Source of the DNA: Sphaerodactylus townsendi
Lineage: Eukaryota
Direction of reading: 5' to 3'
DNA length: 64,000 nucleotides
Assembly: GCF_021028975.2 (NCBI RefSeq)
Contig: NC_059429.1
Location: 78,616,001-78,680,000, forward strand
This document shows positions 29,961 through 56,243 of this stretch, one piece after another. The notes under the pieces were generated by a model. It saw only the letters and a program-made list of their open reading frames with translations, was not told the DNA's origin and made no database searches. Each line of letters opens with the position of its first letter. Position 1 is the first letter of the stretch. The translations under genes and the position numbers were made by a program.

Positions 29961-32601
29961 TACATTTGTTAATTTTAGATAATTTAATGGATCATGGCTA
30001 TATGATTTTTATTTTATCTTTTGCAGTGTGTTTTTAAGCTCTTCCATCTCAGGGTCAGCCCCTGTGAATCTAGGAGTTACTTTTCAACATTGGTCTGGTC
30101 TGGGGTGGACAGAGGACAGACCCATAAATAAATGTGTTGTTTGGCCCATGATAGCATGTCAAAGGCAAGCTAAACTGGGATGGAATGCTTCCTCCTATCT
30201 GTGAAGAAAAGGGCACCCAGCAATCCCACCCTTAGCATAGGAGTTAATGTTCAACAGAGTTGCCAACTCATGTTGGGTAATGCCTGGAGATGTAAGGATG
30301 GAACTTGGGGAGAGTGTGATTTGGGAAGGGGAAGGCCTTCAGGGGGGTATAATGCCATACTGTCTATCCTCCAAAGCAGCCATTTCCTGCAGGGGATCTG
30401 ATCTTTGTTGTATAGAGATCAGTTGCAATTCTGGGAAATCTACAGGCCCCACCTGGAGGTTTGACGGCCCTAAGGAAGAAGCACAAATAAAGTGAGTAAC
30501 AGATGAAGTATCAACAAGCACCACTTTCCATTACTGCCACTCAGTGAAAGCTGTCGCCTTCCAATCATTTGCCATTACCTAGAAAAATGAAAAATAGAGG
30601 TGAAAAATGGAGGAATGCTGATTACTGATTGACAGCTGGGCAGATTGGAGGTGTCACCTAGTGGAGGAACAGCAAATCACTATAGAAGACATTAAAACAA
30701 GATAAAACCTAGTAGATTTATAGCTTGATTCTAAGATGTAATTCCATAATTTCAGAGGATCACTTGCAAGGCTGCAGTCTTTTGTACTTTTGTATGCAGA
30801 TCCTGCAGAACTTCTAGTTAAGCATGCATAAGATCAGTTTGTCGATTGTTTGCATGCATAATGTTGCTATTTTGCATTACAGTCCTATCCTGTGCCTACC
30901 ACTGCATCACAAACAAAGCAACTTTCAAATGACTGGTAGCTGAGTACACCAGCTTACCTCTCACCACTTGTAGTCTACCTTTTATTTTCCAAATTATTCA
31001 ACTTTCTGTTAGTTCTGTATACCGTACTTAGAAAATATGCCTTAGGTTGGCTCACTGTGGCTTTCTGCCTGACTTGATACTTAATGGGCAATTTTTCCTC
31101 CCACACATACTGGTAGCTTTAAACATATACCACAAGCCACATGTAATGATTTACCCTTAAAGGCAAAAATATTATTTCCAGTTGTAATGATATATGAATT
31201 CTAGGATGCTAGGCATCAGAAGAGTTCAAATGCTTCCAACAAAAGTTTTCTTGAAAAGTCACACAGGAAAAGCCACATATGCATTTTGGATTAGGCCAGT
31301 GGTACTCACTCTAGAGCTTACAGAGTGCCACATTTACACTTATCAGTCAAAAGAGCCACATGACAACCATGTGCCCTGTGCAACACTCTGCAACACCCAC
31401 ACATGCAATAATTTAACATACAATAATATACCTCTGGAAATACTGGATAGTCTCTCTCCACCACTTTTGAATTTGTGCACCCTTTACTTTGCTCTTGGCC
31501 TTCTCAGCTTTTCCCCACCATGAGATACAGCAGTTCCAGGAAGAGAGTGAGATTGCCAGAGAAAAACAAGATGGCTATGGAGAAAGGAGAGCCAAGCCAA
31601 CCCACCCTCCATCCCGCTATAGCCCACTTGCGCTCCTTCTGGCAGCTGCCCTGGTGCTGGGGTGAGCATATACAGCAAGGAAGGACAAGAGTTCTAGGAG
31701 AGTATGTGCCCTTCAATCCCTGGTACTAGGCCCATACTTTAGGGGGATTCATAGTTTATCCAACCTCCAGTGGTGGTTGTTTCAACGCGGGAACCACCTG
31801 TTAACCGCAAGCCCTACTGGACAATGGCTTTGCCCACTCTCCTGGAGCATGGTGTGAGTGCTACACTGAGGAACAGTCCTCAAAAGAGCCACAGATGACA
31901 TGTTAAACAGTCACATGTAGCTACTGACTATCACTGGACTATCACTCTTTTAGCATAATATATGTTTTTGATCTACCAAGTTTTTCAAGGACTGTATCTC
32001 TCTCCAGGCTGGTGAAGGATACTATCAATGCTATTTTGAGAAAGAGGGTTCAGGTATTATTTATTTTCTTTTTACAATTGCTTGGTTTTTACACAAGCTG
32101 AAATTTTAATGATATAAATATGCAGTTCAAGTTGCAAATTACATGCACATTGAGGGTGGCAGCCAAAATAGTTTTAATCACAAAAAGCATACCCTCCATG
32201 CTTTGCTGAACCATGTCACCCTAAGCATAGTTTCAGAGTTCCAGACTTGGAAATGACATCCTCTGCTTAATCAGTTCAAGGTTCTTACAGGAACATGTCA
32301 CATGACACCTCCCCCCATACCCAATCACACACCCAGGGATTAGTCTAAGGCCTTTAATAGGTTTTGTGAAGAGCCTGCTAAAAGAAGCAGAATCTATTCA
32401 CAATCACATTATTGTCTCGCAAAGAAAAACACATAGTATGGCTTGGTACACAGATCTGTGGCAAAGGTACTTTCTAAAAAGAAACCAGTTCTCTGTGCAA
32501 AGCTTCTCTAGCTCACCTGATGTCCTGTAAACATTCCAGAGGCAACATTCTACCGTTATAGAGGAAAGAAAGAGAAAACAGCTTCCTTCAGACTCAGGGT
32601 C

Positions 32602-32625
32602 ATGGGGGTCTCCCAGTCAAAACGG
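32602..32625 (+). CDS. Probable first coding exon of the FAM107-like gene (MGVSQSKR)
   Basis: Strong Kozak context GTCATGG, upstream in-frame stop, perfect CGG|GTGAGT donor, and an MGxxxSK myristoylation pattern. Confidence 0.55.
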
Positions 32626-33479
32626 GTGAGTAGCTTTCTTGTTGATGGTTTGGTAAAAAGCGATCAAAGCTTGCACCCAACATGCCTCAGAAGTTGCTAT
32701 TCTGATACTGCAGTGGGGTCTCTTTGATCAGTCAGGCACATTTCCTTGCCTTTGCAGCTGGAGTAGTGAGTCTGTTAAGATCTGTTACAGTATGATTGTC
32801 TCTTGACTGAAACTTAGAGGTGCTTCTGATGGCTCTGCCACAATTAGGGAATATTCTACCCCTGGAAATTCTAGTAAGATTGACCATAATTAACTGTTCT
32901 GTGGAGTACTACAATAACTTTTTAATTTGAACTTGTTAGAATTTCATGTTAGGTAGGCTAACCTGATGGATGGAGTATCGTGGCATGAATGATGAGTGGT
33001 TTAGTCATATTTTTAGTAGAAAATGCTATCTCTAATGGAACATTCAGGATGGACCTGGCTTAACCAAATAAATTTAACTGGCCCTGTTCCAAGTACCATC
33101 AGTGTCACAGGTGTCAGTTTGGATCTTTTCAGTTTATCACTGAGCAATGAATTTATAGTTCTTGGAGGGGAACCAGGTGTCCAAGTAAGCACTTCCGATT
33201 TGGGGACATCACTAGTAAGTGTTAATGCAATTTACTGTACAAATTTTATGAAGACTTAGTGGATGGTCCCCGTGATGTCAGTGATGACAAGTAATATCAG
33301 ATTCCATTGTGCCTGTGCTATTTTGTGGAATTTGTAAGAGATATATGTAATTTGTACAAACGTCATTAAGTGCTGAGTTTTCTTTACTGGAACGGGTCAA
33401 CTAGGCTAATTTCTCCCTTAGTAGCAATTTCATTTCATTTTTGGTATAAGCTGTGTATCTATGACTCTAGCAATGAAGT

Positions 33480-33750
33480 ACACCTTTGCGGGTTTTCCAG
33501 GCTGTGTGGCCAGGGTCTGGTAGTTTTTGCTTCTAACATTTCATCTGCATCTATGACTGGCATATGCAGAGATATATCACAATAAATGTGCCATGAATAG
33601 AAGCACGTATTACAGTGACATGCCTCTGAAGATACTAGCATAGATGCAGGCAAAACCTCAGGAGCAAAAACTACCAGACCGCGGTTACACAGCCTAGAAA
33701 ATCCACAACAACCAGTTTTCCAGCTGTGAAAGCCTCCGACAAGACAAGTA
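33480..33750. mobile_element. Penelope-like element terminal remnant (inverted pair) with degenerate hammerhead-like cores
   Basis: 33490-33570 is the inverted copy of 33625-33710 (GCAAAAACTACCAGACC...CACAGCC). CTGAAGA...GGC-AAAAC-CTCAGG resembles a mutated minimal hammerhead. Confidence 0.5.
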
Positions 33751-33840
33751 CACCTTTCTTTTTTAAATGGAGAGAACAGACACCACTGGCAAGGCTATAC
33801 ATCCACAGCAAGACTAACCTCTCTCCTATACCACTACAAC

Positions 33841-34230
33841 CAGAGATGGGATCCAGCAGGTTCTCACAGGTTCCCAAGAGTAGGTTACTAATTATTTGTG
33901 TGTGCCGAGAGGGGGTTACTAATTGGTGATTTTGCCACGTCATTTTTGCCTTAATTACACCCCTCCTCTCAGCAGTAGTGTGCAGAACGTGAAGCAGTCT
34001 AGCAGGAGGTGCACCGGCGTGTGTGGCAGCCTGCGCCTGCGTGCATTCGTTTCCCGCCCAAGGATCGGCGCAGCGGCTGCGTCCTTGCCACAACCCCGCC
34101 CAGGAATGCCCCACCCCTGGAATGCCCGGCCACGCCCAATCATGCCCCGCCCAGCCCCATTGGCGCTACGCCACAGTTTGAATCCCACCACCATGGGAAC
34201 CTGTTACTAAAATTTTTGGATCCCACCACT
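33841..34230. mobile_element. hAT-type non-autonomous element
   Basis: Ends CAGAGATGGGATCCA / TGGATCCCACCACT; flanks share TACAAC; GC-rich interior. Confidence 0.6.
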
Positions 34231-36109
34231 TACAACACTCTGGCCTATGTAAAGGCTGTGGCTACTCCTACAGTAGAAATGGTGGGCATATAGCGAAGTA
34301 TTTCCTTGAGTACAAAAAAGGTAATCATACATGTGAACCAAATGCATGTGAAGACTTCTAGAGGTTCAGAAGTAACTCATGGGCCACAGTGACCTCTCTT
34401 CTGCGCAGGGCTGTTGTGGTACCAAGAATTGTCTCAGATGCCACACCTACAGGTGAAAACAGCTCTTGTAAAACAGCCTCCCGCAGGGATAAACTTGGAG
34501 ATTATACTTAATCCTGCTAGGTCTAGTCATCATTTTCACTCTTACATTGATCTAGTGAACCTATCCCCTTTACCTTCTTTTCCATGGTTGCTCAACCACA
34601 ACCTAAGCCAAGGCTTGCCAGAAAGGCTATTTTTAGCCTTCACACTACAGACTGAAGAAAGATAATGCTTGGTCTCCCCATACTTCCTTTGGTGCACAGT
34701 AAAGCAGTAATAATTAACATTCCAAATCCAATAAAAGAAGGCAAAGACTGAGTAGAAAGGAAAAAAGTATACTTTTGAACTTGCATTCACATTCTTCGCT
34801 TTCATAGACTCAGAGATGACAGCTCTAACTACTGTGAAATAGCTGTGAAATAGCATAAACAAGTTACTGACTGACTGTGAAATAGCATAGACAAGTTATT
34901 TCCCAAAGATCATCAACCGATGAAGGGAAGCAGCTTCCACTTCTCATAGGAATAAATGCTAAAACTACTGGCTGAGGGTATAAAGCTCCTCCTAGTTTAG
35001 TGTTGTACCCTAAACGACAGAGTCAGTTCATAAATGTGTCTGTTGCTTGTTTTCTACGATTTAGACCTGTGTTAGTGATGCTATGCTTTGTTCCCAAATC
35101 TATAGGAGAAAATGGCTGCAAAAATTAATGGTAACTTTGTCTGTGCTATTAAAACTGTATACAAAAGCTGGCTTCTAGCAGAGCTCATTTTGCTTAGCTC
35201 CTAGCATCTGGGTAGCAGTTCAGCATATTGATGTATAATGGCTCCTCCAACGTCTTCTTAGTGCAGGTGCGTGCATGCACACACACACACCCAGCACAAT
35301 TTGAATCTCCTAACATCTACATCATTACAATATGTTTGCACTGTTTTCTTTTGATGAGCAACAGAAGCTCATCCTGGCAGGTGATGAGATAATCAGCAGT
35401 GGATTAAAAGAGAAATCTGCTCTGAGATGGAAAACCTAATCCTGAAAAGCCATACAGAGGAACAGAGACATCCAGAATAGCCTCATCACTTTGAGATGAT
35501 CCTATGAATTACCAGAGCAGAATGCAGAACTTGGAGAATAAATTTGATGCTGGGGAATACTAAGTTTGTATAGAACTCATGGACTTTTGAGTTCCTCTGT
35601 CTATTGCCAGGTTAGTAGAAAAATTTGTCTTGCAAATGAAGCAAGATCAGTTGCCAGACTGGGATACCAAGAGCCTGAATATAGCATTATTATCTTGGCA
35701 AAAGCAAGCAGACATAGCATTTTTTTTATACTGTACTTGTTAGGTTCAGTTGGCAAACGTGTTTTTTTCCTTCTCTGATAGATAGATCATGAAAAACTGG
35801 AAGCAATATAAAGTCAAATACTCCAAAGTGTTTTCCAGATAAAGCATACCAAATATGATCATAGAGATTATCCCTGAGTCAGTATATTGCTTTAAAGGAG
35901 TATGTGAACATGTGTTTCAATACCACATTTGAGAGTATCACTATGAAAATCATACTACCTCTGCTCAGCCTTGTCCTATGAAAAAGGATGCTTACAATTC
36001 TGTAAAAAGCATTATTCATTTTGTGTTTCCTGTAGTTCTAACCTAACAAATCCATTGAATCCTGTAGAATTGATGGGAGATTATATGAATATATTAGTTC
36101 TACACCATA

Positions 36110-36385
36110 CCAGCGTGGTGTAAAGGTTAAGGTGTCAGACTAAGTTCAAATCCTCACTTGTGCAGTGGAAGTTTGCCAGTGACCTTGGGCCAGTCATACA
36201 CTGTCAGCCTTGACTCTGGGTAGTATTTGAATGAGAGACCTCCAAGGAATACTAGGATCTATGATGCAGAGACTGGCAATGCCATGCAACCTCCAAAAGT
36301 CTCTTCCCTTGAAGGCCCTACAGGTTCATCGTAAGTTAGTTGTGACTTGGCAGCAAACAACAAACAAACAAAAAACAATAAAAAC
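36110..36385 (+). mobile_element. Composite tRNA-SINE head plus 5S-SINE body
   Basis: CAGCGTGGTGTAAAGGTTAAG...GTGACCTTGGGCCAGTCA is joined to GTAGTATTTGAATGAGAGACCTCCAAGGAATAC and an (AAAC)n tail. Confidence 0.5.
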
Positions 36386-37819
36386 ATCCCACAATAACTG
36401 ACATGCCGCACCACCCTACCACCCCAATTCTGGCAATTAGAAGTTGGTGAGATACTGAGAAAGAATTGTTAAATATCTCAGGGCCTCTCAGAAATAGAAC
36501 TAGGTTAGGCCTGTAACTTAGATGGGTCTGAAGAGGTATTGCTTATCTCAAGCCGCCTCGAGCCCTCCGGGGAAGAGGCGGCCTATAAATCTAAAATATA
36601 AATAAATAAATAAAATGAATTAAGTAAAATTAAAATGTGATTACATAGAGATTATAGTCATATTTTATATTGCCTTATTTAATGAACATGATGCAGCTCT
36701 ACAATAACGATCCCAAGTATATTTATCTAATGTAATTAATTTATTTGCTGCTTTTCTACCATCACAAGGAATCCATACTGGGTTGTAACCATTGTAATAA
36801 TCCCCGTCATACAAACCAACCAAGAACAAGCTCATAGCATCATTCAGATATCTTTCAGAATCATTAAAAAAGTTTTCCTTCTCTTGGAAGGCCTGGATAG
36901 AAAGTTCTACTCACATTTTCTAGGGGACAGAGTTCCACAACATTGAGTGAGGGGCCTGACACTAAGAACTCTCTCGTCAGTTCCTGCCAATGTCACCTCA
37001 GCCAGTATATCTTAGGGAGGGCCTGATTTGTAAACCTTGAACTTATGAAAATATGTGCTCCTTCAAGTATTTTGGACTTAAGCCATGATGTAGGCCTTTA
37101 AAGATTAAAAGCAGCACATCAAAACGCATTCAGACACTTTAGTGGGGCCTGGATTCTTACTGCAATGTGCATTTGCATTTCAATGCACATCTGTTTCCAT
37201 TTTGGCTCTGAACTCAGAAGCCTACTTCTGTTCCTGTATCACCTTAAAAAAATTAAATAGAAAATATTCATTAAGAAATGAATACACGTTCCAGGAAAGT
37301 TGGTACAGCTACTTTAAATAAAAGTCCAACCAAAGGATCCATTACAACCACTAATATCAACATTCATACGAACACTGTACAGTGAAAAGAAAAGAAAAGA
37401 ATAAACAATTTCTGTGACCTAAAACAGTTTTCTCTGGCTTTACTTTCAACAAAATGGATATGGGAAGGTACCAAACAAATACTCATAAAATTCTTTAGAG
37501 ACCTGTATACTTTGTCAATTGACTGCACTCTGTTGACTGCACTTTGTCTACACTCTGTTCTAACTAAATTTACTTAGATATTTAACTAGTGCAGGTATAT
37601 CACTGGCTATTAACTTATTCTACAAGACTGTCCCAGATCATGTACGGTAATTATTAAATTCTACAGGAGCATTTGTGCCACTCTGGTTTTCAATTTCAGA
37701 AATAATGGTTGGGGGAAGAAATCACATAACAGATCTTCAGATTTTCTCCAATCTTGTGGCAGTTCATAACAGAAAAGCCAATAAATAACAAAGCACTGAG
37801 TGGTGTCTAAAACAGAGTG

Positions 37820-38696
37820 AAACAAACCCTGGTAAGATACCTTTTACAATCACCTTCTTCTTCCCAAAGAAGGCTCAATGGGTGGTCTGAGATATTGGAT
37901 ATTTTCGCATGGATACAGTTGGACCTGCAAATCTAACTCACTCCCCTCTTTTGGTAAACACACCTGTTTTCTTCTTGTTTCATCAGGGTCAAGAATCTAA
38001 TAATCTTGTCAACAATACCCGGGGGGCTACATAACAACCTTGTAATCACTGTTCTAAGGTCCAGTTGTCTAGCCTCCCTATTTGTGTACTACTGCTATGT
38101 GAAAGGTTTAGAAATTGAAATTACTGCCCAGTTTGTTTTCGTTCTCATTACATCCAAGTGGACCTCTTTGGTTCTAGAAATCTGAGATCTTCTGTTGATC
38201 TTTTTTTCCCCTCATACTTCCATTCTGCTATCAAGGATGTGACAATTCTTCCATTTGAACTTCCAGATCAGCATTTTCCCCTTGTCCATCATTTCTGATT
38301 CCTGAGAAGTCTGTGCTACATGATGCCTTTCAGTGATTTCTTGAAGTGAAATCAGGTCTCTTTGGTCTTTATGCTGTAGAACTGAATCCAAAATTTTCTC
38401 TGCAATGACACATGCCAAACTCTTTCCCTTCCAGGTTCTTCTGTATTTTTTTCCTTTGGGCAGGGTCTCATTAGTAGATTAGAGAGAATGATTTATATCA
38501 TCAGGACAAAGTGATTTATTTTCAAGTTCTTTTATCATTTTTTCTCTGGGCAGGGTGCCACTGGGAGATGGGGAGAGCTGCTAATAACATTGGGACAGGC
38601 TGATTTCTCCATAACATTGGTTTTAATGATTGCCTTTGTTGGCTGTACAGTTCTACTTCTTTTACCAATTTCTTTTACCAATTTCTTTTACCAATT

Positions 38697-38731
<35 letters not shown>

Positions 38732-40170
38732 TCTATCTAGTTGTTTGTTTGTTTGTTTGTTTCCCACCCTTTCCAATAGGGCTCAGGGTGGCGAACATCA
38801 ATATAAACCAGATAAAACAATACAATAAAATCAATGTAACAAAAAGCCATACCAATTAAAACTTACAACAGTAGAGCAATAAATAAGCAGATGGCGATAA
38901 AATCCCATAAAAGACACCCATGGGAGGTCACGATGTTCCTGTTAGGCCGGCTGGCAAAATATAAAAGCCTGGCAGAAGAGCTCGATCTTACAGGCCCTGT
39001 GGAACTCACTGATGTCCTGCAGGGCCCTCATCTCAGGTGGGAGCTCATTCCACCAGATGGGGGCCAGGGCCAAAAAAGCCCTGGCCCTAGTAGTTGCCAG
39101 CCGGACCTGTCTAGGGCCGGGGACCTCCAGCAAATTCCCCCCTGAGGAATGGAGGGGTCTAGAGGGGCAATATGGGAAGAGGCGGTCCCATAGGCATGTA
39201 GGTCCAAGACTGTTCACAGTCTTAAATGTCAAAACAAGCACCTTGAACCTGATCCAGAACTCGATCAGCAGCCAATGGAGTTGGTATGGGACCGGTGTAA
39301 TTTTACACATCTTTTGCCAATAAGCTACTTGATGTTCACATCCCAAAACACTCAAACTGGAGTAAATTGGTATGACAATAAATAGGCTTTCATTTTTAAT
39401 AACGCTGAGGGAAGAGTTATTTGTCTAAAAGTCAGAAGAATCCTTTTTCTTGCTGGCATTAATGGCAGCCATCTAACTGCAATTAGATGCATACTGACCA
39501 ATACAAAGTATAATCTGATTTGGCAGCAATTGAAGAAATTGTACTTCAGCCTTTCCAACAGTTTGGCAATGATTTAAAGGAGCAGAAGGCAATTTTTGCA
39601 CATTAACTTGGTTGATGTTTTCTTCAAAGCATAGTGTGTTTGCATTGAAGGTGAAATGATTATTTGTAGTAGTAGGTCTCTCCCACTTTTATTCAGTGAG
39701 GGATTCCAATGTAACTTCTAAACACTTAGCACTGCTGGACTCTAAGGCAAGTTGATCATAAATAGCAGTTACTGTTTTACCTGTTAGCAAGCACTGTGTA
39801 GCCACAAAATCCATAACAGATTGTTGCTGTGTTTCATTACTGTCACACTTTAGTATTTTCTCCAGACTGTCTCGCAAGGGCGTCTTATCAACCACAGAAG
39901 TTTCTCCCAAAGAATTAAAACTATCTGGAATGGATAGTAATTCTTCCGATTCAAGTACTGCATATCTTTAACTTAAAGGGACATCAACAGAGTCTCTCAT
40001 TCTTCCTGGGAAAATACATTTCATAAGACTTTGATTGTTTGACAGGTTTTGTGAACGACCAAAGCTTGTATGACTTCATTTTTTGCATGTCAAATTGTAA
40101 TACAGTAGGGTAAGAGAATTGTAAAGCCTCTCACCATTAATAGCCTGTTCTGTCCATCCACTCCCAAATT
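37820..40170 (-). pseudogene. Possible decayed large coding exon(s) of an unidentified gene, antisense in the FAM107-like intron
   Basis: Successive 50-75 codon stop-free, K/E/S-rich frames linked by frameshifts (39689-39910, ~38470-38640, 38212-38418), interrupted by the L2 insertion. No family recognised. Confidence 0.3.
38697..39308 (-). mobile_element. 5'-truncated L2-clade LINE
   Basis: LHWL.IEF.I.FKVL.LTFK...WN.LP C-terminus of L2 ORF2; (TAAA)n/(CAAA)n tail at 38697-38760; flanks share TCTTTT(A/G)CCAAT as a probable TSD. Confidence 0.85.
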
Positions 40171-40519
40171 CTTTTAATGAAGAGATAAGAAGCCAGTTGT
40201 TAAAAAGTCAGCTCTCTATACCGTAAAATAAACCTAATTAAAACCCAACTGACAAAAATAAAACAAGGAGCTAGGGAGCAAGAAAACACAGCCAATCTGA
40301 CGCCATCTTCAGTTCCTGTATTATTTTTGTCAGATCAGAGGTGAGATAGAGTTTAGGCTGAGAAGCACTTTTAACTTAACTATTTTTTCCACTCAGTATT
40401 TATAGAGTGACTTTAGCAGACAGGGCAAATAAACTAACACTTAATCCTGAAAAAAAATGGAGGGGCTGTTGGTGAGCTGAAGGATGGACCCAAGAATTCA
40501 GGCATCTTCTGTAATGGAT

Positions 40520-40735
40520 TAGCGTTGCCAGGTCCTCCTAGGCACTAGAAGGGTTGCCAGCTCCAGGTCAGGAAACCTCTGGAGATTTGGGGGTGGAGCC
40601 TCAAGAGGACAGGGACCTCAGCAGAGTGCAATGCCATGGAGTCCATCCTCCAAAACAACCATTTTATCCAGGGAAACTGATGTCTGTAGTCTGGAGATGA
40701 CCTGCAATTCCAGGAGATCCCCAGGTTGGTATCCC
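40520..40735. mobile_element. MITE of the GGGTTGCCA...GGCAACCC family (relatives at ~30260-30460 and ~44905-45075)
   Basis: Shared GGGTTGCCA(A/G)CTC..GGAGATTTGGGGGTGGAGCC..TGTAGTCTGGAGAT..GCAATTCCAGGAG core in three copies. Confidence 0.55.
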
Positions 40736-41353
40736 TATTCTGGATGTGACTGCACTCCCCCTAAAGGAGTAGGTTCATAGCATGGCAGAGGCATAGCAAA
40801 GGGGGAAAGCGCCCTCCACCGCGTCCAGCCCCTGGTGCATCCTCCACCCTGTCCCACCCCATCCCGCCCCGCCCCTGGAACGCCCCCGCCACACCCCCAC
40901 AGGGGAGCATGCCTGGTGCATCGCATACCCCCCTGTCCCCTTGGAGCTACGCCTCTGTAGCATGGGTGTGTTGCGGGACCCGGATCTCCTGTTAGATAAG
41001 CGGGTGCAGTGGTGGCCAGGAGTGCTTTTCATCAACGTTGAACCTCGCTTGGGTTAAAAAAAATCTTGCCACTGTGGTGCACACCCTGGTAACATTTAAT
41101 TTAGACCACTGCAGTTCACTGTATGTGGGGCTGCCAACAAAGATCGTCTGGAAGTTACAATGACTGTTACAGCCAGAATGCTGATTGGAGTGGTCATACA
41201 GACTATTGTTCCAGTCTTTTTCTACAACACTAGCTCTTTCCAATTTGTTCTGGGTCTAATTCAAAGTGCTATTGATTTCTAAAGCTCAATACAGCTTGAG
41301 ATCAGCATACTGTAAGGACTGTCTGCTCCCATATGAACCTACACAATAACTAT

Positions 41354-41497
41354 GGGGTCTGCAACCTGCGGCTCTCCAGATGTTCATGGACGACAATTCC
41401 CATCAGTCCCTGCCAGCATGGCCAATTGACCATGCTGGCAGGGACTGATGGGATTTGTAGTCCATGAACATCTGGAGAGCCGCAGGTTGCAGACCCC
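41354..41497. mobile_element. Near-perfect palindromic MITE
   Basis: GGGGTCTGCAACCTGCGGCTCTCCAGATGTTCATGGAC... and its reverse complement, centred on GCCAATTGAC; ~70-bp arms. Confidence 0.8.
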
Positions 41498-41899
41498 AAT
41501 ACTCCAAAGGCCTTTTTTTTTTGGTGCCTCCATAGTCTGAGGTGAGACATGTGGTAATTCAAGAAAGATTCTTCTTGGCAATGGAACCAAACATATGGAA
41601 TTCCTCCTCAGGGAGATGCATCTATTTCTCTCCATCACTGTCCTCCACCAGTGGGTTAAAACTTTTCTGCTTTGTTTGGGGTTTTCTTACTGACATCTTC
41701 ATGTTTATGAATTTTTAACTGTTTTAAATAAAGCTGATTTTGGTTATTTTGATTGTTTCCCACCCTCAGGGGGCTAAGTTGGGTAGAAAGGTTACAGTAA
41801 AATAATTTTAATAAAATAAATTAATTCTGTTTTTTGAGTTTATCCACTGCTTTCTTAAAATGCTTGTCCGTTTCCTAATTTCAGATTTTTCTGTTCTAG

Positions 41900-41936
41900 G
41901 GTGAATACAGAACCCATAAAAGCAGACTGAATACGG
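41900..41936 (+). CDS. Probable exon 2 of the FAM107-like gene (GEYRTHKSRLNT)
   Basis: Branch-like CTAAT, pyrimidine tract and TAG acceptor; GTAGGA donor; phase 0 to 1 exactly bridges 32625 and 44285. Confidence 0.45.
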
Positions 41937-42988
41937 GTAGGAACATTTTACATTTGAGGAAAAAGGAGGGGCAATAAAAGTAGAGAGAAACTGAATTAGA
42001 GAAGCTCATCTTGTTGGGAATGGAAATAGAAGTTGTTTTCTCCTTTGTAACAGAATTTTCTCATTGTCCATATTAGCAGAATTCTGTTGTGTACTTTATG
42101 GCCCTGATTTTAAAAAAAGGATTATGGGTGGCCCTGATTTAAAAAAAAATTCTCAAAAGAAATACTAGGAAGGGCATCCAATTATACATTTCATTTTGAA
42201 TGTTCCTCTATCACCTGTTGGGGACCCAAACAGCCCCTGGGCATTCCCATTCTGTGGGGACCCGGGGACCCATCCTTAGAGTCTTTTCACCAAAGCAGCA
42301 ACACATGAGGCATCTTTAAGGCAAGGCTTCTGCTTCATTGCTTGACTTTAACAACCCCACTGCCTGACAATCAGCTGGGACACATCCTTGACCCAGGGTT
42401 GTGGGAAAAATGGGATGTGGGGGTAGCAACAGTTTCCTACAGGAATTGGTCAAATCCCATGGGCGTTTCAGAGGGATGGAGCCTCCAAAGGGCAAGCCAG
42501 ACCTATCATAAGACAAAGGGAAATCCTCAGAGTGTTGGCTCTTGCGCTTCAGGTTGAAACAAGCAAGATCATTAGGTGGAGAGCAAGGGTGAAGGAAATC
42601 CCTTTCAGTCTGAGACATGTGGAAGAGTACACAGAGCCCTCTGCTAGCAATAATCTGTCAGGCTGGTCTCCCCAACTTGTGGGTCAGGATCCAAAAGTGA
42701 ATTGTGAAGCCTCTGAAAGTGGGTCATAGCCAACCCTTGTTCATGGGACCTCCTGCACCTTCCATCCTTCTCTTTCTTTCCTCTTCACTAGCTTCTCACA
42801 TTGTCATCTTCCCCTCCTTTGTGACAGTAATGAAGGGGGGAGAGCCATCCTGCAATTACTAATTTCACAGTAGTAGCAGAAAGAACGGGGGAAAGGTTGG
42901 AGCTCTTCAGCATCTGGAAAAATCTGGAGGGTAGAAAAAAGCATCTGGAGGGTAGAAAAAAGTGTCTGCGTACACTGACTCTATTTTG

Positions 42989-43106
42989 AGCCGCTTCCGC
43001 ACAATTGTTTGAAAGTGGATTTTGCTATTCCGCACAGTAAAATCCAGTTGCAAAGTGCACTGAAAGTGGATTGAAAGTGTATTATTCTGCATGTGCGGAA
43101 GGGGCC
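42989..43106. mobile_element. PIF/Harbinger-type MITE (internally deleted copy)
   Basis: Same family as 28538-28688; TSD TTG. Confidence 0.7.
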
Positions 43107-44284
43107 TTGATATTGTTCCTTCAGCAGCCCAGCCTCTTGCCTAGCTCCCTGCACTGCTTCACTGGCTTCTATCTGCTGTGAAGGATGTACTACATCAAGT
43201 CCCTTGGCATCAACCTCTTCACTGTCATCTTCATGTATCCCCACCCAGAGCCCCTCCCCCCACCAAAAAAGCATGCCTCTTCATACTCCAGCCCTGGTCA
43301 GATGGCAGAGGAGAAGGAGTTTGGGGTTTTTTGTGGTGGCAGCTGTCCCGTTGTGTAATGTTTGTGGTTTCTCAGAAACATTTGGTTAAGCACTGCAGAA
43401 AATGGAATGCTGGAATAGATGGGTGCCAACGCCATAGTTTGCCTAAGATACTCAAAAAACCTGGAGCCAGCCCTGGATGGGTCACTGTACAAAGAAAATC
43501 TGGATGTGTGGCTCTCCATTTGAAAAGAGTGGTAACTACTATTCTACAGTGCCATCCAGATTGTCCCCTGAACACAAACACTCTAGCACTCTGTTCCTAT
43601 ATGATTACTAGTGGAGGAAATAATCTTGTTGTAGAGTTTGCTTCAGGACAAAGGTGGGGAGAGCGCGCAGCAGCCAGATTTTGCCAGTAATCCACTAAAT
43701 TTCTGACTGAAAGAGGATTTGGATTGCTAGCCATTGACCAGGTCCTAAAATCTTTCCACTACAATACCAAGGTCTCCCCTCCCACCCCCAACCCCCTTTT
43801 TGCTTTATGCTCTGTTTGTTTATAGAAGATAGCTTTATATTAGCATTTAGTATGGGTTTCCAAATGAGTTTAAAATGCTTTGCAATTTTTCTGCCGTTGA
43901 TGACTGCATAAATGTACTCTCACACAGTAAATTAAAGGTTAAAGCCATGAATTTCAGAAATAGTACAAACTCAGTGGCTGGAATTTGTTTCACCACATGG
44001 GGGCACATTTATACAATATAATTAACTGTGCCGGAATCACTGTGACAGCGTTCCTGCAACTGCGTTGAAAAATCCTCTGAGCTAAATCTCAGAAATCTGC
44101 ATGGTGATTGCCTTTAGTCCAGCAAAAGTACTCAGGCAACTTTAAAAAATGATGAGCTCCTCAAAGCCATTTTTTTCCCATCATAGCACCATCTGTGGTG
44201 AATAGTGGTATGCTGGCCACCTGATTGCTTACTACTGCCAAATACTGAAGTTCATGACAGATGGCCTTTATTATTGTGTTTCAG

Positions 44285-44432
44285 ATGGAAACAGTGGGAA
44301 CTTTGAGCATGGCACCTACCAGGCATCTGGGAGCCACAAAGGACTAATTGAGCCCAAGAAACTGCCGAACCCAGTAAAGGAGTCTAAGCACCATCGAGAG
44401 ATGCACCGGGAGTTGCTTTTCACTCATAGGAA
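44285..44432 (+). CDS. FAM107-family (DRR1/HITS-like) exon
   Basis: TTTCAG acceptor; ...GLIEPKKLPNPVKESKHHREMHRELLFTHR, matching the FAM107A/B motif LI.P.KL.NPVK.S..H..LHRELL; GTGAGT donor. Confidence 0.9.
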
Positions 44433-45250
44433 GTGAGTGGATCTCTAATCCAGGGATTGTTGTAGGGAGATTACTGCTGTGAAGGGATGATTCTTATAAG
44501 ATTATTCAAAGGACCATTCCTGTTCTACTGCCCACCTCTTCCTCTGCCACCTGGGTCTGGAATCGCTTGGTTTGGACATGAACCAATGAGATAGCTCTGT
44601 GTGATATTATGGGATCTCCTCCACTAAGCCAATGAGAGAACGTGAGTACCTAACACAGGAAAGTTTTGCGTGAAACATAGGAAAGAAGGCATCTCAGATT
44701 TTTTAAAGGTAGAATTTAAATTCAGAAACCCAGCGATTCCTGGTAGACCAGATAACCCATTCCAGGAGAAATAATTTCGGGACTTATCAGGGAAGTCTTG
44801 GGCTTCTAAGAGACACTTTGCCTGATGGGAAACCATAAAGATGGATGAAAAATTAAAACCTATTAGGTACTACAAATTTTTATCATCTACTCACTGACTT
44901 TGTTGGGGTTGCCAACTCAGGATTGGGAGATTTAGCAGCAGAGACTTGGGAGGGAGCTCATCAGGGATATGTTTTCCAAAACTGTTGTTAATCTCCAGTG
45001 GAATTGAGGCCTGTAGTCTGTACATAAATTGTAATTCTGGGAGCTATCCAGGTTTCACCTGGAGTTTGCAATCCTAGTTAAGAACCTAGGGTTATACTGG
45101 ACCTGGCATTACTGACGAAGAAGCACGTTAATGCATCTACTTAAAAAGAAGCAGCTTTTTTTCCAACCTAGTTTAACCCTGAAGAAGGGCCCCTCCCTTG
45201 AGTTGACATACAAAGCCTGTCATAGCCTTGGATCCTCATGGCCTCAATAC

Positions 45251-45389
45251 CAGTGGTAGGATTCAAATACTTTAACAACTGGTTCCGAAAGGACTCAGTG
45301 GTAGGATTACAACCGGTTCTCTGAACTAGAAAAAAAAATTAGCTACCGGTTCTACAGAATAGGTGTGAATAGGCTGAATCCCACCACTG
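45251..45389. mobile_element. hAT MITE, same family as 13074-13174
   Basis: CAGTGGTAGGATTCAAATA...GAATCCCACCACTG, with a partial TSD CTCAA. Confidence 0.7.
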
Positions 45390-45697
45390 CTCAAGATGAT
45401 CTCTCTACCTATGTCCTTTTGTGACATCTTTGCTCATTTGAACAAGGCCTTCTGCAGGTGCCACCTTGAATGTGGGCAGGATCAATAATTGCCCATACCC
45501 CTCCCTTCTCTGTAGTGGCTGTGATGCTGCCGAATTCTTTGCCTGAGAAAGTCAGAAATGTTCCCATGCTCCTGCTATTTCACCAACCGTAAAACACAAT
45601 TATTCAGGAGGACATGTTTGTGAAGGAAATAGGGCTACATCATTACAGATTGGCCCAAGAAAATGTACTGTGTTTCTACTGTGTGTTCCTGCAATCC

Positions 45698-45753
45698 AGG
45701 GGGTTGAACTTGATGATCCTTGGGGTCTCTTCCAACTCTATGATTCTATGATG
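45698..45753 (+). mobile_element. CR1 LINE extreme 3' end
   Basis: GGGGTTGAACTTGATGATCC...TTCCAACTCTATGATTCTATGAT, the CR1 (ATTCTATG)n terminus. Confidence 0.7.
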
Positions 45754-46013
45754 CAATACCATAATATTAATGTTTAATACTTTTGCTTTGTTCAGATGAT
45801 AACTCCATTTCAAATTTTTGTAATTCCTAGTCTTATTACATTGCTCATTAGAGATGTCTTATTGATTACATTGATTTACATTGTGCAGTCTGCCTTGAAT
45901 CTCAGTGAGAAAGGTATACTATAAGTAACACAAATAAAATAATAAATCCTAATAATAATCCTGTGAGATCCTTCACAGTCACAGATCCTTCATTTTGTGT
46001 TGTTTTGTCTTAG

Positions 46014-46158
46014 GGGGCTATTTCCAGAACATAAGCCTGAGCTTCAGAGAGTACTAGAAACCAGGAGACTCAAGCAGCTGAAGCAACAGGACGAAACACA
46101 CACTCCCTTAAGAGACTTGGAAGAAGAGCTGAGAAAAAGACAGCAGAAACTTGACCAG
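46014..46158 (+). CDS. FAM107-family exon (coiled coil)
   Basis: GLFPEHKPELQRVLETRRLKQLKQQDETHTPLRDLEEELRKRQQKLDQ carries the KPELQ.V.E.R and EL..RQQKL FAM107 motifs; canonical splice sites with consistent phase. Confidence 0.9.
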
Positions 46159-46659
46159 GTTTGTTCTTGATAAGCCACAACAATGTCTCAGCCATCTCAT
46201 GGCATAGTTATCATCTGAGTACAATATTCCTCCATAATAGTCCCCCAGTATGTTAAGGCCGCTGACTCTGTGTCAATTGTTTTCTTCCTAACCCTCATTT
46301 AATCACAGTTTCTCTCCATGCAAATCCTTACTGGTTCTCAGTATCATCATCACTTTCATTTACCATGGCACAATAAATCCTTAGTTCTCTGCCCCAGGTT
46401 TTCAACCTAGCTGTGGTATGCTGGCAAGTTCAATGTTTGGGAGGATTTCTTAATGAAACAACAACCTTTGGTGACAAGTGAGCTCAAATGTATTCATGGG
46501 CTGTAGGATACTGATTTCTTTATTATATCTCTTGTACTATGCCAGAGGCTGTATAGTAAGTAGAGCAGTTGTTGTAAATAGGTATCTTCCTAAACATGTA
46601 ACAGTTTGCATCTAGGCAGACACCATAACAGAATCAGATGGTGCTCTAGATGCTTAACC

Positions 46660-49117
46660 CTTAACTCTTGAAGCTGCGGCTGGACATGCCGCGCCACCCC
46701 TGTCTAGGCGACGGGCTGATTTATGCCCGCCCGCAGAGACTTATGGATCCAATTGCTTTCCTGAATGCTCTGTGGGACCCTGAACCCGCCGGCACACTCA
46801 ATGAGCAGGTGGAGGATTGGAATTCCCGCCTCTCCGATGCCATTGAGACTGTTGCCCCCCGGCGTCCTCTGCGCCCCCGTGCAAGGCGGGCTCCGTGGTA
46901 TACAGAGGAGCTGCGCCATATGAAACAGGTGCTGAGATGTCTAGAGCGAGTGTGGAGGAAATCTCGTGACGAAGCTGCGTGAACATCCTATAGGACGTTT
47001 ATGAAAGCCTATGAGATGGCGATGAAGGAGGCAAAGAGGGTCTTCTCCTCCTCCTCTCTCGCATCTGCTAGCTCTCGCCCGGCACAATTATTTCGGATAA
47101 TTCGATCCCTGACCTCTTTATCAGAGGGCCCTACAAATTGTGAATTGGCTATCAGCTGTGAGGCATTTATGAGCTTTTTTGCAGATAAAGTCGCATCGCT
47201 CCGCCGGGACCTTCCTGCCACCTTAACTACAATTAGCGAACTGGAGGCTCCCTTGCCGTCTTCTGGCCCTTGTTTGGTCCAGTTTTCCCTGCTCTCCGAA
47301 GCCACTGTTGACAGGGCCCTGGCTGCTGTTAGACCTACTACCTGTCCTCTGGATCCGTGCCCTTCCTGTCTGATTAAAACTTGCCGGGAGGAGCTACGAC
47401 CCCACGTGTTGAAGATCATCAATGACTCTCTTGAGCAAGGAGTCTTTCCAGATGGGTTGAAGGAGGCAGTGGTCTGCCCACTCTTGAAAAGACCATCGTT
47501 AGATCCTGGAGATCTGGCCAATTACCGCCCCGTCTCGAATCTTTCGTTTCTGGGGAAGGTAATTGAGAGAGTGGTGTTGGAGCAGCTTCAAGGCTTCCTG
47601 GATGACACATCGACTTTTGATCTCTTCCAGTCCGGCTTCTGTGCTGGGCATGGGACGGAGACGGTTCTCGTCGCTGTGACAGATACGCTCCGTATGCAAC
47701 TAGACCGAGGCGGATCGGCGCTGCGGGTGTTGTTAGATTTCACCGCAGTGTTTTATGTGGTCGACCATGACCTTTTGACCCACCGCCTGGCCGCCTCCGG
47801 GGTCCGGGGCATTGTCCTTCAATGGATTGTCTCGTTCCTCCGAGGGTGGAGGCAGCAAGTGTGGTGTGGGGACAAAGCTTCCTGGAGATGCCCGCTTCAT
47901 TGCGGTGCGCCTCAGGGGGCATTGTTGTCCCCACTGTTATTTAACATCTATATGCGACCCCTTGCTCAGGTTGTACGGAGCTTTGGGCTGATCTGCCATC
48001 AGTATGCTGACGACACTCAGCTCATTCTGTTGATGGAGGGGGGAGCTGCTGCCGCCCCTGCAGCTCTAAAGCATTGTTTGGAGGCAGTTGCTGGTTGGTT
48101 ATAACCGAGCAGGTTAAAACTTAATCCATCGAAGACGGAGATCCTTTGGCTCGGTCGGGGGGGAGAGATTGGGGATTTCCAGCCGCCAGTGTGGGAGGGG
48201 GTCACATTGGCGCCGACCTCCTCCGTCCGCAGCCTGGGGGTCCACCTGGATTCGTCTCTTTCAATGGAGCCCCAGGTGGCCCATATAACCCGGGTTGCGT
48301 TTTTCCACGTCCGACAGGCCTGTTGGCTGGCTCCCTTCCTCTCCAACACTGATCTAGCCACTGTGATCCACGCAACGGTCACCGCCAGGTTAGACTATTG
48401 TAACTCGCTCTACCAGGGCCTTCCCTTGTGTTTGATCCAGAAACTGAAACTGGTCCAACATGCGGCGGCCCGTCTGCTCACGGGGGGCGCCTTTCGAGAA
48501 CATATTCACCCTGTGTTGCGCCGCCTGCATTGGTTACCGGTGGAATTTCAAATCATCTTCAAGGTGTGGATATTGACCTTTAAGGCCTTACGCGGCCTGG
48601 GACCCTCGTACCTTCGGGACCACATTACCCCATGTGCCCCGGTTCGATCTCTGCGTTCAGTAGAGGCCAATTTACTGGAGATCCCTGGCCCCTCAATGAC
48701 GCGGCTGGCCTCCACTCAGGCCAGGGCCTTTACAGCTCTGGCCCCGGCCTGGTGGAACACTCCACCACCAGCAGTCCGGGCCCTGCGGGACCTTGGAGAG
48801 TTCTGCAGGGCCTGTAAGACCAAATTGTTCTGCCGGGCCTTTGGAGAGACCAGCTGCTGATGCTGACAGTGCCTCTGTCCCCCTCCCTCTGATTACAGGG
48901 GTCCTTAACATCAGTAAGACCCATTATTCCTTTCTGGGTATATGGGTTCCTTTCTGGGTATATGGGTTTCGTGGGACATAGTTTTAGAATGTAACTGTTT
49001 TTAAATTGTATGTATGTTTCCATATATAATATTTTATCTTGTTCACCGCCCTGAGCCCTTTGGGGATAGGGCGGTATATTAAATCTATCCAAATAAACAA
49101 ACAAACAAACAAATAAA
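46660..49117 (+). mobile_element. Young 5'-truncated L2-clade LINE, ORF2 reverse transcriptase
   Basis: One frame from 46668 to 48860, broken only by stops at 46980 and 48102. RT motifs NYRPVSNL, FQSGF, PQGALLSPLLFNIY and YADD; L2 C-terminal DYCNSL and LHWLPV; (AAAC)n/(AAAT) tail. Confidence 0.93.
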
Positions 49118-49440
49118 ATGTAAGTATGGAAAGAAGCAGAGTCATTACTGTCCAGGAGAGCAGTACCTTTTCAACTTGGTGTAATTCTAATAAACATAAA
49201 CGCTAAACTAAATACTTAAGATTTTCTGATATAGAAATGTATACATGGAGACCAACGAACAAAATATTAAAGCACTGCAAAGTAAATCATTCAACTATAA
49301 CTCTATGCTTATCGTCATTATCTAAATTTTATACAAGAAAAAACATCCTCTAAGGCACTTGACAATACCAATTAACTATCTGCCTCCCAAAAATTCGCCT
49401 TTGAAGCAGAAATAACAATATCAGGACTTTCCTCAACATA

Positions 49441-49984
49441 GGCCCTTTCCGCATGGGCCAAAAACGACAGCCTGGGGGCGGTAAAAACGCCGCCCCCAGA
49501 ACGCCGTTCGCACAGGTGGCGCTGCTGCAACGCAGCAGCGCCGACCTGACTGCGCTCCCCCTCCCCCAGGGCGGCGTCAGGCCGCCCTAAACAACAACCC
49601 TTTAAAGGGTTGTTGTTGAGGGGAAAGCGTCTTCCCGGCGGCGCGGTGCGAACCGCGCCGCCGGGAACACGCTGTTTCCCCTTCCCTTTCCCATGTACCT
49701 CTCGTGTCGCCGTCCTGCTGGCCTCCTAAGTCCCTCCCTCGCTGTCCTCCGACCCCTGGAGGTCGGAGGGCAGCGTGGGCGGGGCTGAGGAGGCCAGCAG
49801 GACGGCGACACGAGAGGTACATGGGAAAGGGAAGGGGGGAAGAGGCGGCTCCATACGGAGCCGCCTGCCGCCTGCCGGCCTCTCCAGAGGCCGTCCGCAT
49901 GCCTGCATGCGAACGGCCTCTGCCTCCACGCTGGCGGAATTCCTGCCGGTGTGGAGGCGCCCTTACGGCCGTGCGGAAACAGCC
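49441..49984. mobile_element. GC-rich Harbinger-type non-autonomous element with a long internal hairpin
   Basis: TIR GGCCCTTTCCGCA / TGCGGAAACAGCC; 3-bp TSD (ATA); internal inverted repeat at ~49678-49840. Confidence 0.75.
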
Positions 49985-50247
49985 ATAGAATAAGAACCAT
50001 TTTTCAATGCATTTATTTGTTGTTACTCGAATTAGTCTGTTCCCTTTAAATTTGGGGAATTGGAACAAATCTTGCAATATGGCCAAACCAGGATCTCCAC
50101 CAATGTCTACCAATGTCTTTCCCCTTAGAAATCCACACAAGCCAGAATTTAGGAGAAGGTTTTACAATTTTATTGAAGAGCCAAAAATAATCAAAATACA
50201 CACGCGATTCAGCAGAACACACACACACAGAGTTTCAAGGAGCCTAG

Positions 50248-50388
50248 GGTCCCTTCCGCACACGCAAAATAATGCATTTTCAAACCACTTTCACAACTGT
50301 TTGCAAGTGGATTTTGCTATTCCGCACAGCTTCAAAGAGCACTGAAAGCAGTTTGAAAGTGCATTATTCTGCATGTGCGGAATGAGCC
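50248..50388. mobile_element. PIF/Harbinger-type MITE
   Basis: Same family as 28538-28688; TSD TAG. Confidence 0.8.
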
Positions 50389-52253
50389 TAGGAGAGAGAG
50401 AGAGTGAGATGAAGGATAAATTGGGAATAGCAAAGGATGTCAAGGAAGAGCTATATTTACCAATCCAGGAAGCAAAATCCAGTGCCAGCTCTGTTTTCCA
50501 GGAGAAGAACGACATTGGGCACAATCAAACTAGAACCAAGGGCAGCACAAGGTCAAAAAGTGAGTGGCTCTCATTTGTGAGGTCTAGTAATAGGAAAAGT
50601 AGGCCCTCTAAGAGGGGCTACTTTCCAGAAACAAAGCAAAGTTCTGTTCCCAGGCAGGAACAATGCTAAGAAAAAAGCGATGATTAGGTTCAAACCTGGA
50701 AGTGCCCAACTTCTGATGAGTTCAGGGCTGTGTTGATGAAATTAACCCAAGGGCATTCCAAGCCTGTTATAATAAAGGAACTCCGGAAGGTTGGATGGTT
50801 CTCTGATAGTTGGACTGGAGGTTCAACATTAAATTAATGTTAGGAAGAAAGGGGAATCAGGTGAGCTGATTGAGTCAGGGTGTGGAGCATTTGCATGTTC
50901 TTTGTGAGGTCAAGAGTAGATGTGCCTACTCAAGGCTGCGCTGTTGTTATCCAGATCCGGGCATTGTCTACTGCTGTGCATACTTGATTGGGAGGAGGAA
51001 AGCATGTTAAGGCAGACCCCCCTTCATATCAAAGTCCAAGAATTAAAATGGCCTCCATTTTAGTCTGAACTGTATATGACTGGTAGGACGTTTTAGAAAA
51101 TGTCCCCTCCCTCTTGAAATGAATCTGCATGCCAACATTGTGAGTAAAAATTAAAGATTTTTATGTAGCAATTTTTAATTCATATATCATACAAGAAAAG
51201 CTGCCTTCTCAGTGCCTCATCCATCCCCTGCTATCTTGTGCCAGGATTCAACACATGTGCTTGTTGTTTTCAACTTCTTTGCCATTTCTAATCTTGTAGC
51301 AGGCATTAGGTAGAGTGTAAAGATTTTTATGCAGCAAATTTTTATTTTGCCCTTGAAAAAATCCTTATGAACCTGGAATGACAGTCTGGCTGATTGCTTG
51401 ATTGAGCTCCTCACAGATCTGAATTTCTTTTCAAAAGCTGTATTCATATAATAGTATATTCCCTGAAACTGGCAGCTCCTCCATTAATAAGAGGAAGAAT
51501 TAGTGAAATGTAAGGGAGTTTACTAGTGTCTTATGTATTGATTCTAAGAACATTTCTCTTTTTAGTAGCTACCATTTAAATAGTAATGTAATCCATATTA
51601 AATCCCACATCTTATTAGGATGTTTATGTTGTGAGCATTCTCTTCCATTAAAAAAATTAGAACCAGAACAGAGATTAATAATTAGAATGTTATCAGTTCT
51701 AGACACGAAACCGTTAGCATTGTTTCCCATCTTTAGTAGTAGTAATTCAGTTGGACTAAGGGGTAATAATAAATGCAATGCATGACACTTATAGCTTCTT
51801 CACAGATGTGGGGATCTGCAGTGCTTTCAGTCTGAGTGTTGCCACAATAAAGTTGGAGTCAACCAGAAACGTTACACTGCAAATGGCTCCAGCCTACGGC
51901 TAAAGTAAATGTCACTTGTAGAATAATAGTCCAAATGAAGCAGTACAGACTTCCCCAAACCAGATAACTTCTCTGGTGTTATGTTGAGTATATATATCAT
52001 ACAACAAAAGATAAGGGAATTCCAAAAAGCATTAATATGCTGACATCAATCTGTTCTCTTTCTTGAAGCCTGTCCTCTGAAACTTTCAAGCCACTTTCAG
52101 CTGTCTTTAAAATTGTGATCAAATCCAATGTTTGTGATGTTCTGTAGTTATTTCCATTTTAAGTTAATGCTATGAAGTCTGGGTTAGAGATTGGGGAGGA
52201 TGATGTTTGGGTAGAATCTCTAATTTTCTTCATTGTCATTGTCTGGTTTGCAG

Positions 52254-52364
52254 TATGAGCAAGAGCTGGTCCTGAATGGGGAACAAGATGGCAGGCCTGA
52301 ATTCATCCTTGTCAAAGAAAGCCTCAAAAAGACTAAGCTGCCTCCAGATACAGGCATAAGGTAG
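52254..52364 (+). CDS. FAM107-family last coding exon
   Basis: TTGCAG acceptor; YEQELVLNGEQDGRPEFILVKESLKKTKLPPDTGIR-TAG, with the PEF..VK..L.. FAM107 C-terminal motif. Confidence 0.88.
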   Translation, partial: YEQELVLNGEQDGRPEFILVKESLKKTKLPPDTGIR

Positions 52365-55300: not shown

Positions 55301-56243
55301 AATCCACTGTTACTAGTGTCCAGCTCTAATTCTTAAATAAAATGAACTTTGTGTCAATCAGTGTGTGCTTTTTCAGCTTTGCAAGTTATATCTGCACCTA
55401 GGCTACCTGGCACTGTATGAAAACCTCATCTTAGGATGTGTTCTTGCCTGCTGAACCATGCCTCATTTCAGAAACTGCTGCAAAGTATCCCTTAAACAAA
55501 AATAAACCCCAACTTAATTGTGGTAGTCCACTGTCATGAATTGAAGTGCTGGTATATTTTGTGCAGTTCCCATTCATGTGAACAAGGTTTGCTAAAGAGA
55601 AGTGCATATACATTAAATCTAATGCTTGGAAAACATGGCTAGCTCCAGCTTTTGAAGGTGGACCCTGGCTAGGAGGATTTCTTAAGAGTCTAGGAGAGGA
55701 GCATAGCAAATCTTTAAGAGCATTCTACTTAAATTTCTATTCCTCCTTTAACGCTACCATTTTGTACAGCACCCCCACAGACTTATTTGAGAACATTTTT
55801 GTTTAATTTTTTAAAACCCACCATGGGACTTTTATAGATGGTTGTTTTATTTTAACTAATATATTTTAACTAAGCAACGAGATACGTGAAAAAATTCTTT
55901 ATCGAGCTTGGCAAACTGGCAAATATGGTGATAAGGCAGGACTGGCTGCAATGTTTTCTTTGGAACTACTGGTCATGACCACAAAGAAATTGATGACCAC
56001 CACTGTCATCAAGAATGCTGATCTGCACGTTCTGAATCGTTTCCAAAATTAGATAAATCTTGCAACTATTGCTGGGCACCTCCCTCTAACCCTTCATGAA
56101 AGCAAGCGGAAGTTCTGCTGGGTTTCAAAAAAAAGTTTCAGAACAACAAGAAAACCACTCCTCAGTTTAAGTACCACCCTGCTTGTTATAAACATGAATG
56201 CTTTGGCCAGCTTGAGTATTCTTTTGGTGGGTCTTCAATAGAG

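Follow-up and report, generated by a model that had tools for sequence, protein, structure and literature searches.

The window analysed here, a stretch of 64,000 nucleotides (nt) from Sphaerodactylus townsendi (NCBI RefSeq assembly GCF_021028975.2, contig NC_059429.1, positions 78,616,001 to 78,680,000 of the forward strand), contains a five-exon gene of the FAM107 family that we designate FAM107C; its clade is referred to as clade C, and a probable fourth paralogue in the same genome as FAM107D (D). Sequence comparisons argue that FAM107C is a separate third FAM107 paralogue of ancient origin. The reading that we favour, and regard as reasonably probable, is that this third gene arose in the early genome doublings and that its product is an N-myristoylated, membrane-tethered bundler of actin filaments resembling DRR1, the FAM107A protein.

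The five exons lie on the forward strand. Exon 1 (32450..32625) carries the 5′ leader and the first eight codons (32602-32625; MGVSQSKR, a predicted myristoylation site) and ends in phase 0, and exon 2 (41900..41936; 37 nt, phase 0 to 1) encodes a basic segment predicted to be disordered. Exon 3 (44285..44432; 148 nt, phase 1 to 2) contributes the PKKLPNP and HRELL motifs and the start of the DUF1151 domain, exon 4 (46014..46158; 145 nt, phase 2 to 0) the KPELQ motif and the central helices, and exon 5 (52254..52449) the PEF motif, being coding up to the stop codon at 52362-52364 and followed by a 3′ untranslated region transcribed to at least 52449; the first AATAAA after the stop lies at 52829. 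All introns are of the GT..AG type, and the joined frame of 465 nt is intact, encoding 154 amino acids (aa) plus the stop. An earlier note on this DNA had described five in-phase exons and an intact 154-aa protein beginning MGVSQSKR, and its coordinates, introns and frame all agree with this model. The Pfam DUF1151 profile (PF06625) matched exon 3 with 41.8 bits and exon 4 with 42.3 bits against a cut-off of 25, exon 5 searched alone against Pfam matched no family, and the Atlas feature matches for the window protein (0.96) all corresponded to PF06625. The closest database protein, a Eublepharis entry named 'FAM107B-like', shows 89.5% identity to the window protein over 153 aa and begins in the same way.

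Splicing of this gene was observed in public sequencing data. From run X4, a 579-nt contig (depth 8.44) aligned to 32450-32624, 44284-44432 and 46014-46155, leaving a 37-letter gap for exon 2, and the same contig covers 41899-41936, flanked there by the last bases of exon 1 and the first bases of exon 3. Exon 2 is also covered, up to its edges and no further, by two raw reads from RNA run X6, which belongs to a separate study and organism label (organism B). Exons 1, 2, 3 and 4 are spliced together, including the junctions 32625-41900-44285, and the two 5′ exons, held to be the less certain ones in the earlier note, are both real. Since the X4 contig lacks three introns, it derives from a transcript unless the genome carries a retrocopy, the kind of run X4 being unrecorded; a retrocopy is an unlikely origin, as genome searches gave exon-by-exon matches only. 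Past 46155 the contig has 44 unplaced letters, and a second X4 contig lies on 52284-52449; the joint between exons 4 and 5 is predicted from the frame, the splice sites and the orthologues. Runs X5 and X1 yielded nothing on exon 2, and the 20-kb read alignment was crowded by repeats. Expression of the gene is low or tissue-bound within the runs sampled.

The exon 1 leader is transcribed from at least 32450, and the X4 contig carries 32 further letters before the placed stretch. The upstream ATGs at 32438 and 32520 are out of frame, and their short frames close before 32602. An in-frame stop lies 28 codons before the ATG at 32602, which is accompanied by G at positions -3 and +4; this stop and the start context indicate that Gly2 is the true second residue. 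When the pattern ATGGG-N19-GT(A/G)AG was applied to both strands of the window, exon 1 was the sole match.

Three further features were noted within the gene. Run X4 reads C for G at 44288, close to the start of exon 3, changing Gly to Ala; Ala is also present in two other gecko models, and the difference is likely allelic. The intronic segment 44052-44114 (+) resembles the alternative N-terminus of a Euleptes model; it was rejected as a coding first exon, since it does not begin with ATG and is followed by a stop, and is perhaps conserved non-coding sequence or an alternative leader. Intron 4 contains, at 46665-48860 (+), frames resembling the reverse transcriptase of a long interspersed nuclear element, broken by stops and with many similar copies in the reads.

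The profile search revealed three DUF1151 loci above the cut-off in this genome. The locus on contig C3 is FAM107A, its exons being 91%, 84% and 92% identical to the Gekko FAM107A exons, and the locus on contig C6 groups with named FAM107B proteins. Separate FAM107A and FAM107B loci are thus present, a point that the earlier note had wanted confirmed, and the window gene is the sole copy of neither. Over 109 aa, the window protein shows 52% identity with this genome's FAM107A and 50% with its FAM107B. Careful trees were built from 29 rows (LG+G4) and 35 rows (mixture model) out of 59, omitting cyclostomes, Lingula and near-duplicates, and a quick 59-row tree included cyclostomes and Lingula. 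Clade C received support of 99/96 with 29 rows and 97/91 with 35 rows, and a Shimodaira-Hasegawa-like approximate likelihood ratio (SH-aLRT) of 92 in the quick tree; within it, skate branches first. The window protein falls outside the B clade (100/99), and clade C is sister to B (98/89-90 in the 29- and 35-row trees), with a split of 98/89 separating B and C from A and D in the 35-row tree. The approximately unbiased (AU) test rejected trees in which the window and Anolis proteins were constrained to join the FAM107B (p 9e-54) or the FAM107A (p 2e-36) of this genome. These results uphold the proposal of a separate ancient paralogue.

The exon phases 1, 2 and 0 around the core exons are the same at the A, B and D loci and in the window gene, the FAM107A locus matches the window gene in its five-exon layout and phases, and an alignment of 19 proteins of types A and C has 29 invariant columns. 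From teleosts to lizards, clade C has in common a short deletion within the central helix; exon 4 has 145 nt in the window gene versus 157 nt in FAM107A (12 nt, or four codons, longer than here) and 154 nt in FAM107B (9 nt, or three codons, longer). FAM107A (also DRR1 or TU3A) resembles the window gene in its DUF1151 core, its five exons of the same phases and, in its long form, a homologous 24-nt Met-Gly exon, but differs in clade and locus. FAM107B (HITS) shares the DUF1151 core and a CUPID-domain neighbour and represents the nearest sister clade (98/89), but is far more conserved and lacks the Met-Gly motif. The FAM107B locus of this genome (L005:1465-1590) reads HRELRM for the usual HRELLM, as do three unnamed FAM107B proteins (P0183, P0184 and P0190), a change that is possibly lineage-specific.

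Clade C is not a reptile speciality. The earlier note had suggested a paralogue retained in reptiles; named members in fact include skates, bamboo shark, coelacanth, sturgeon, teleosts, two salamanders, turtles, alligators and many lizards, together with owl, rhea, buzzard, eagle and hummingbird among the birds. Cartilaginous-fish rows (skate, shark or chimaera) occur in A, B and C. Because clade C contains both cartilaginous and bony fish, the gene, and with it the duplication, predates the split between them, and by its phylogenetic distribution FAM107C appears as old as jawed vertebrates. Judging from the proteins collected, clade C is represented in every major group of jawed vertebrates sampled, apart from mammals and frogs: 94 of 315 proteins score best with the clade-C profile, each unnamed one being nearest to a fish, bird or reptile row, and none of the 94 carries a mammal or frog name in these protein searches, which covered no mammalian genome. 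These searches covered the best 150 of 682 and the best 120 of 1155 matches, which weakens the absence from mammals; moreover, word searches missed even the bird members, and 50% clusters could hide a monotreme or marsupial copy. FAM107C has likely been lost in mammals.

The orthologues of clade C are already in databases, under names that are misleading. Entries called 'protein FAM107B-like' (Eublepharis, other reptiles, birds, coelacanth and skates) belong to the same clade as the window gene, as do zgc:195245 of teleosts and the UniRef entries 'Zgc:195245' of coelacanth and Paramormyrops; overall, the labels are inconsistent, naming orthologues as A, 'member A', B or B-like. The group is unrecognised in the literature searched. 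We found no paper treating clade C as one orthologue group, in a search that left subscription journals and most supplements outside, and none on 'FAM107C', on 'zgc 195245' or on FAM107 ohnologues.

A probable fourth FAM107 paralogue was located elsewhere in the genome, so that the third member proposed in the earlier note is presumably not the last. FAM107D (G000:C3:146265496-146278049, loci L007-L009, minus strand) comprises four exons with canonical splice sites and a frame that remains open through the HRELL, KPEL and PEF motifs. The locus appeared as a weak extra match on C3 and as the sequence that a divergent coelacanth protein matches best, and was missed by the Pfam search. Further upstream, in a stretch outside the tree columns, it has a 'HELWL' motif that also occurs in gar and teleost proteins. 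A candidate 39-nt Met-Gly exon lies at 146279626 (C3), and a gene for an L-type calcium channel is 160 kb away.

The N-terminus of the window protein fits the N-myristoylation pattern (PMC5489567), with Gly2 after the true start Met and Ser6, and the protein is accordingly predicted to be N-myristoylated. Gly2, a small residue at position 6 and Lys at position 7 are kept from skates to lizards and in the long form of FAM107A, residue 3 being variable in skate (MGGSQGKR), coelacanth, owl, alligator and lizards. Long FAM107A forms start MGA-x-x-GKK in gecko, wall lizard, turtle, birds, frogs, sturgeon, sharks and zebrafish. In this genome, the Met-Gly exon of FAM107A (G000:C3:24713087-24713110, locus L012, minus strand; 24 nt, MGAAHGKK) is homologous to exon 1 of the window gene, and its next exon (G000:C3:24693947-24694010, locus L013, minus strand; 64 nt, phase 0 to 1) to exon 2. 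Two lamprey proteins also have a Met-Gly start with Lys at position 7. Since the motif occurs in FAM107A and in lampreys too, the Met-Gly exon is not special to the window gene. The myristoylation-type N-terminus put forward in the earlier note therefore holds as regards pattern and conservation, but not as a distinctive trait.

The strict Met-Gly pattern was matched by 55 of the 138 proteins of class A and 15 of the 94 of class C, and by none of the 75 of class B or the 8 of class D, many of the models being partial. Position 6 is Ser in 9 of the 15 clade-C proteins and Gly in 52 of the 55 from FAM107A. The sole deer FAM107A model with a homologous second exon has a different start. The DRR1 form that has been studied (144 aa) begins at an internal Met and lacks Gly2; exon 3 of the window gene offers no Met at its start. 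Taken across the family, the Met-Gly motif is likely ancestral. Among the papers listed for FAM107A together with myristoylation, none dealt with this subject, as judged by title and the start of the abstract.

The AlphaFold model of the Eublepharis orthologue contains helices at residues 55-70, 78-99, 104-129 and 133-145, with a mean predicted local distance difference test (pLDDT) of 69; its first 40 residues are disordered, with a pLDDT of 46-52 at the N-terminus. The modelled core is mostly helical and, like DRR1, has a helix of coiled-coil type at its centre, the coiled-coil pairing being putative. According to PMC6321462, DRR1 binds actin at both ends, with the coiled coil 66-93 as a spacer, and bundles and caps filaments. 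By analogy, the window protein may bind and bundle actin.

On this basis we propose the following mechanism. Exons 1-4 are spliced, and Met1-Gly2 is the first in-frame start. The Met would then be removed and Gly2 myristoylated, and the first 20 residues, with five Lys/Arg and one acidic residue, could add a second, electrostatic membrane signal. Residues 1-40 are predicted to form a flexible tether, and the N- and C-terminal parts of DUF1151, which are conserved, would each bind F-actin, as in DRR1, with the central helix spacing or dimerising them; this spacer, four residues shorter than that of FAM107A, may change bundle geometry. FAM107A, B, C and the divergent D would be four copies of one ancestor within the calcium-channel/opsin paralogon; two of the four would have been kept in mammals.

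The gene order in the window is a DUF3695 gene, a TMEM167-type gene, FAM107C and a GPR15/25-type receptor. The DUF3695 gene has two exons (10366..10813, plus strand) and is, we assume, of the CFAP276/C1orf194 type. An exon of a DUF1242 (TMEM167/Kish) gene lies at 28917..29027 on the minus strand, transcribed away from the FAM107 gene, and a single-exon seven-transmembrane receptor of the GPR15/GPR25 group occupies 56100..57368 on the plus strand, its best solved relative being GPR15 (E 2e-55); from its position, this receptor is inferred to be GPR25. FAM107C would stand at the join of a TMEM167B block and a GPR25 block, which we take to be apart in human. Four CUPID-domain genes accompany the family, about 67 kb downstream of the window gene, 0.43 Mb from B, 9.5 Mb from A and 30 Mb from D, and A, B and D each have an L-type channel gene on their contig, the exon found on that of B being identical to the alpha-1C chain. 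The neighbours are presumably INAVA, FRMD4A, FRMD4B, CCDC120, CACNA1D and CACNA1F, with human blocks that we assume to lie at 1p13, 1q32, 10p13, 3p14 and Xp11. A search for TAF13 (PF02269) gave one weak match only, on another contig, which is uninformative. The FAM107 quartet looks like the product of two early vertebrate genome doublings (2R). According to PMC3826523, the L-type channel family was quadrupled in 2R, with human blocks on chromosomes 1, 3, 7/12 and X; FAM107 is not named in its text, and FAM107, FRMD4, C1orf106 and CCDC120 are absent from five of its supplements.

Several observations weigh against the favoured reading. Depth was close to zero on the exon bins in runs X5 and X7. 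FAM107A is non-monophyletic in every tree, and the D branch is long and unstable in place, lying on one side of a branch in the 59-row (92) and 29-row (75/96) trees and split in the 35-row tree, from which the coelacanth row was dropped. The lamprey and hagfish rows of the quick tree leave the timing of the duplication undecided, all synteny comes from one genome, and CACNA1S, the fourth L-type channel gene, which would be expected near the locus, was found neither by two family searches and an exon search across the genome nor by tblastn of the 400 kb downstream. The Eublepharis model has low global confidence (predicted template modelling score 0.24), and many clade-C database models lack a Met-Gly start or carry it internally, with several teleosts starting otherwise. 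Myristate alone is a weak membrane anchor (PMC5489567), and lipidation and actin binding are predictions.

Part of this evidence would also suit a true third paralogue whose function has diverged, the protein not being lipidated in vivo or not bundling actin (e.g. a soluble or nuclear coiled-coil adaptor), which we consider a serious though unlikely alternative. The core is only about half identical to that of FAM107A, the central helix is shorter, core motifs are altered in birds and teleosts, and annotated models from geckos, anoles and alligator include alternative starts without Gly; DRR1 itself occurs in both nucleus and cytosol, according to section 2.3 of PMC6321462. Against divergence of function stand the retention of Gly2, the small residue 6 and Lys7 from skates to lizards and in the FAM107A long form, and the 29 columns invariant across A- and C-type proteins.

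Another origin would be the duplication of one FAM107B-like gene on its own, rather than by whole-genome doubling, before cartilaginous and bony fishes parted; in its favour are the sister relationship of C and B (98/89-90), the failure to find the expected fourth L-type channel gene nearby and the partly tentative names of the neighbours. We hold this to be improbable, as B and C stand beside CUPID genes on two separate large contigs, and the contig that carries both A and D bears a further two CUPID genes and two L-type channel genes. Labels such as 'FAM107B-like' or 'member A' might further suggest that the gene is a FAM107A or FAM107B orthologue moved to a new place, a duplicate that arose recently in reptiles, or a pseudogene whose 5′ exons are fortuitous. 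These possibilities, to which we attach almost no probability, are refuted by the presence of A and B at other loci, the AU tests and the splicing of exons 1-4; the skates and fish within the clade and the intact frame also speak against them. A genome-doubling origin of FAM107C, with a predicted membrane-tethered actin bundler as its product, remains the reading that we prefer.

FAM107 has been handled as a two-gene family, known through the 144-aa DRR1, which has no lipid site. A third group found throughout jawed vertebrates and a probable fourth member would change orthology calls in expression studies of fish, birds and reptiles, and FAM107 would join the families of a genome-doubling block that is already known. 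DRR1 has been reported in ruffles and synapses, and the shared Met-Gly exon, if it means that FAM107 proteins tie actin bundles to membranes, would bear on DRR1 at these sites. More speculatively, and with slightly less than even confidence, we suggest that FAM107 constitutes a full four-member 2R set, whole in lizards, that ancestrally encoded a myristoylated membrane-actin linker, that mammals lost C and D, and that the long form of DRR1 is lipid-anchored; if true, work on the 144-aa form has missed a lipid-anchored isoform of DRR1. This is a gene-family finding and involves no new kind of mechanism.

Some minor features were recorded beyond the gene. At 61089-63324 and at G000:C5:78680016-78686356, frames occur that seem close to a Harbinger/PIF-type DDE transposase and a Myb/SANT-like partner. 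Blocks of G-rich simple repeat of about 25 and 35 kb (G000:C5:78855200-78880250 and 78985900-79021300) are possibly satellite or assembly artefact and may account for missing neighbours. An 804-codon open frame at G000:C5:~79022700-79025153 (minus strand) has the look of a retroviral gag. Finally, three GPHH-domain exon matches lie within 40 kb at G000:C12:40728174-40766205, two of them equal-scoring on opposite strands, suggesting a local inverted duplication or an assembly artefact in a calcium-channel gene.

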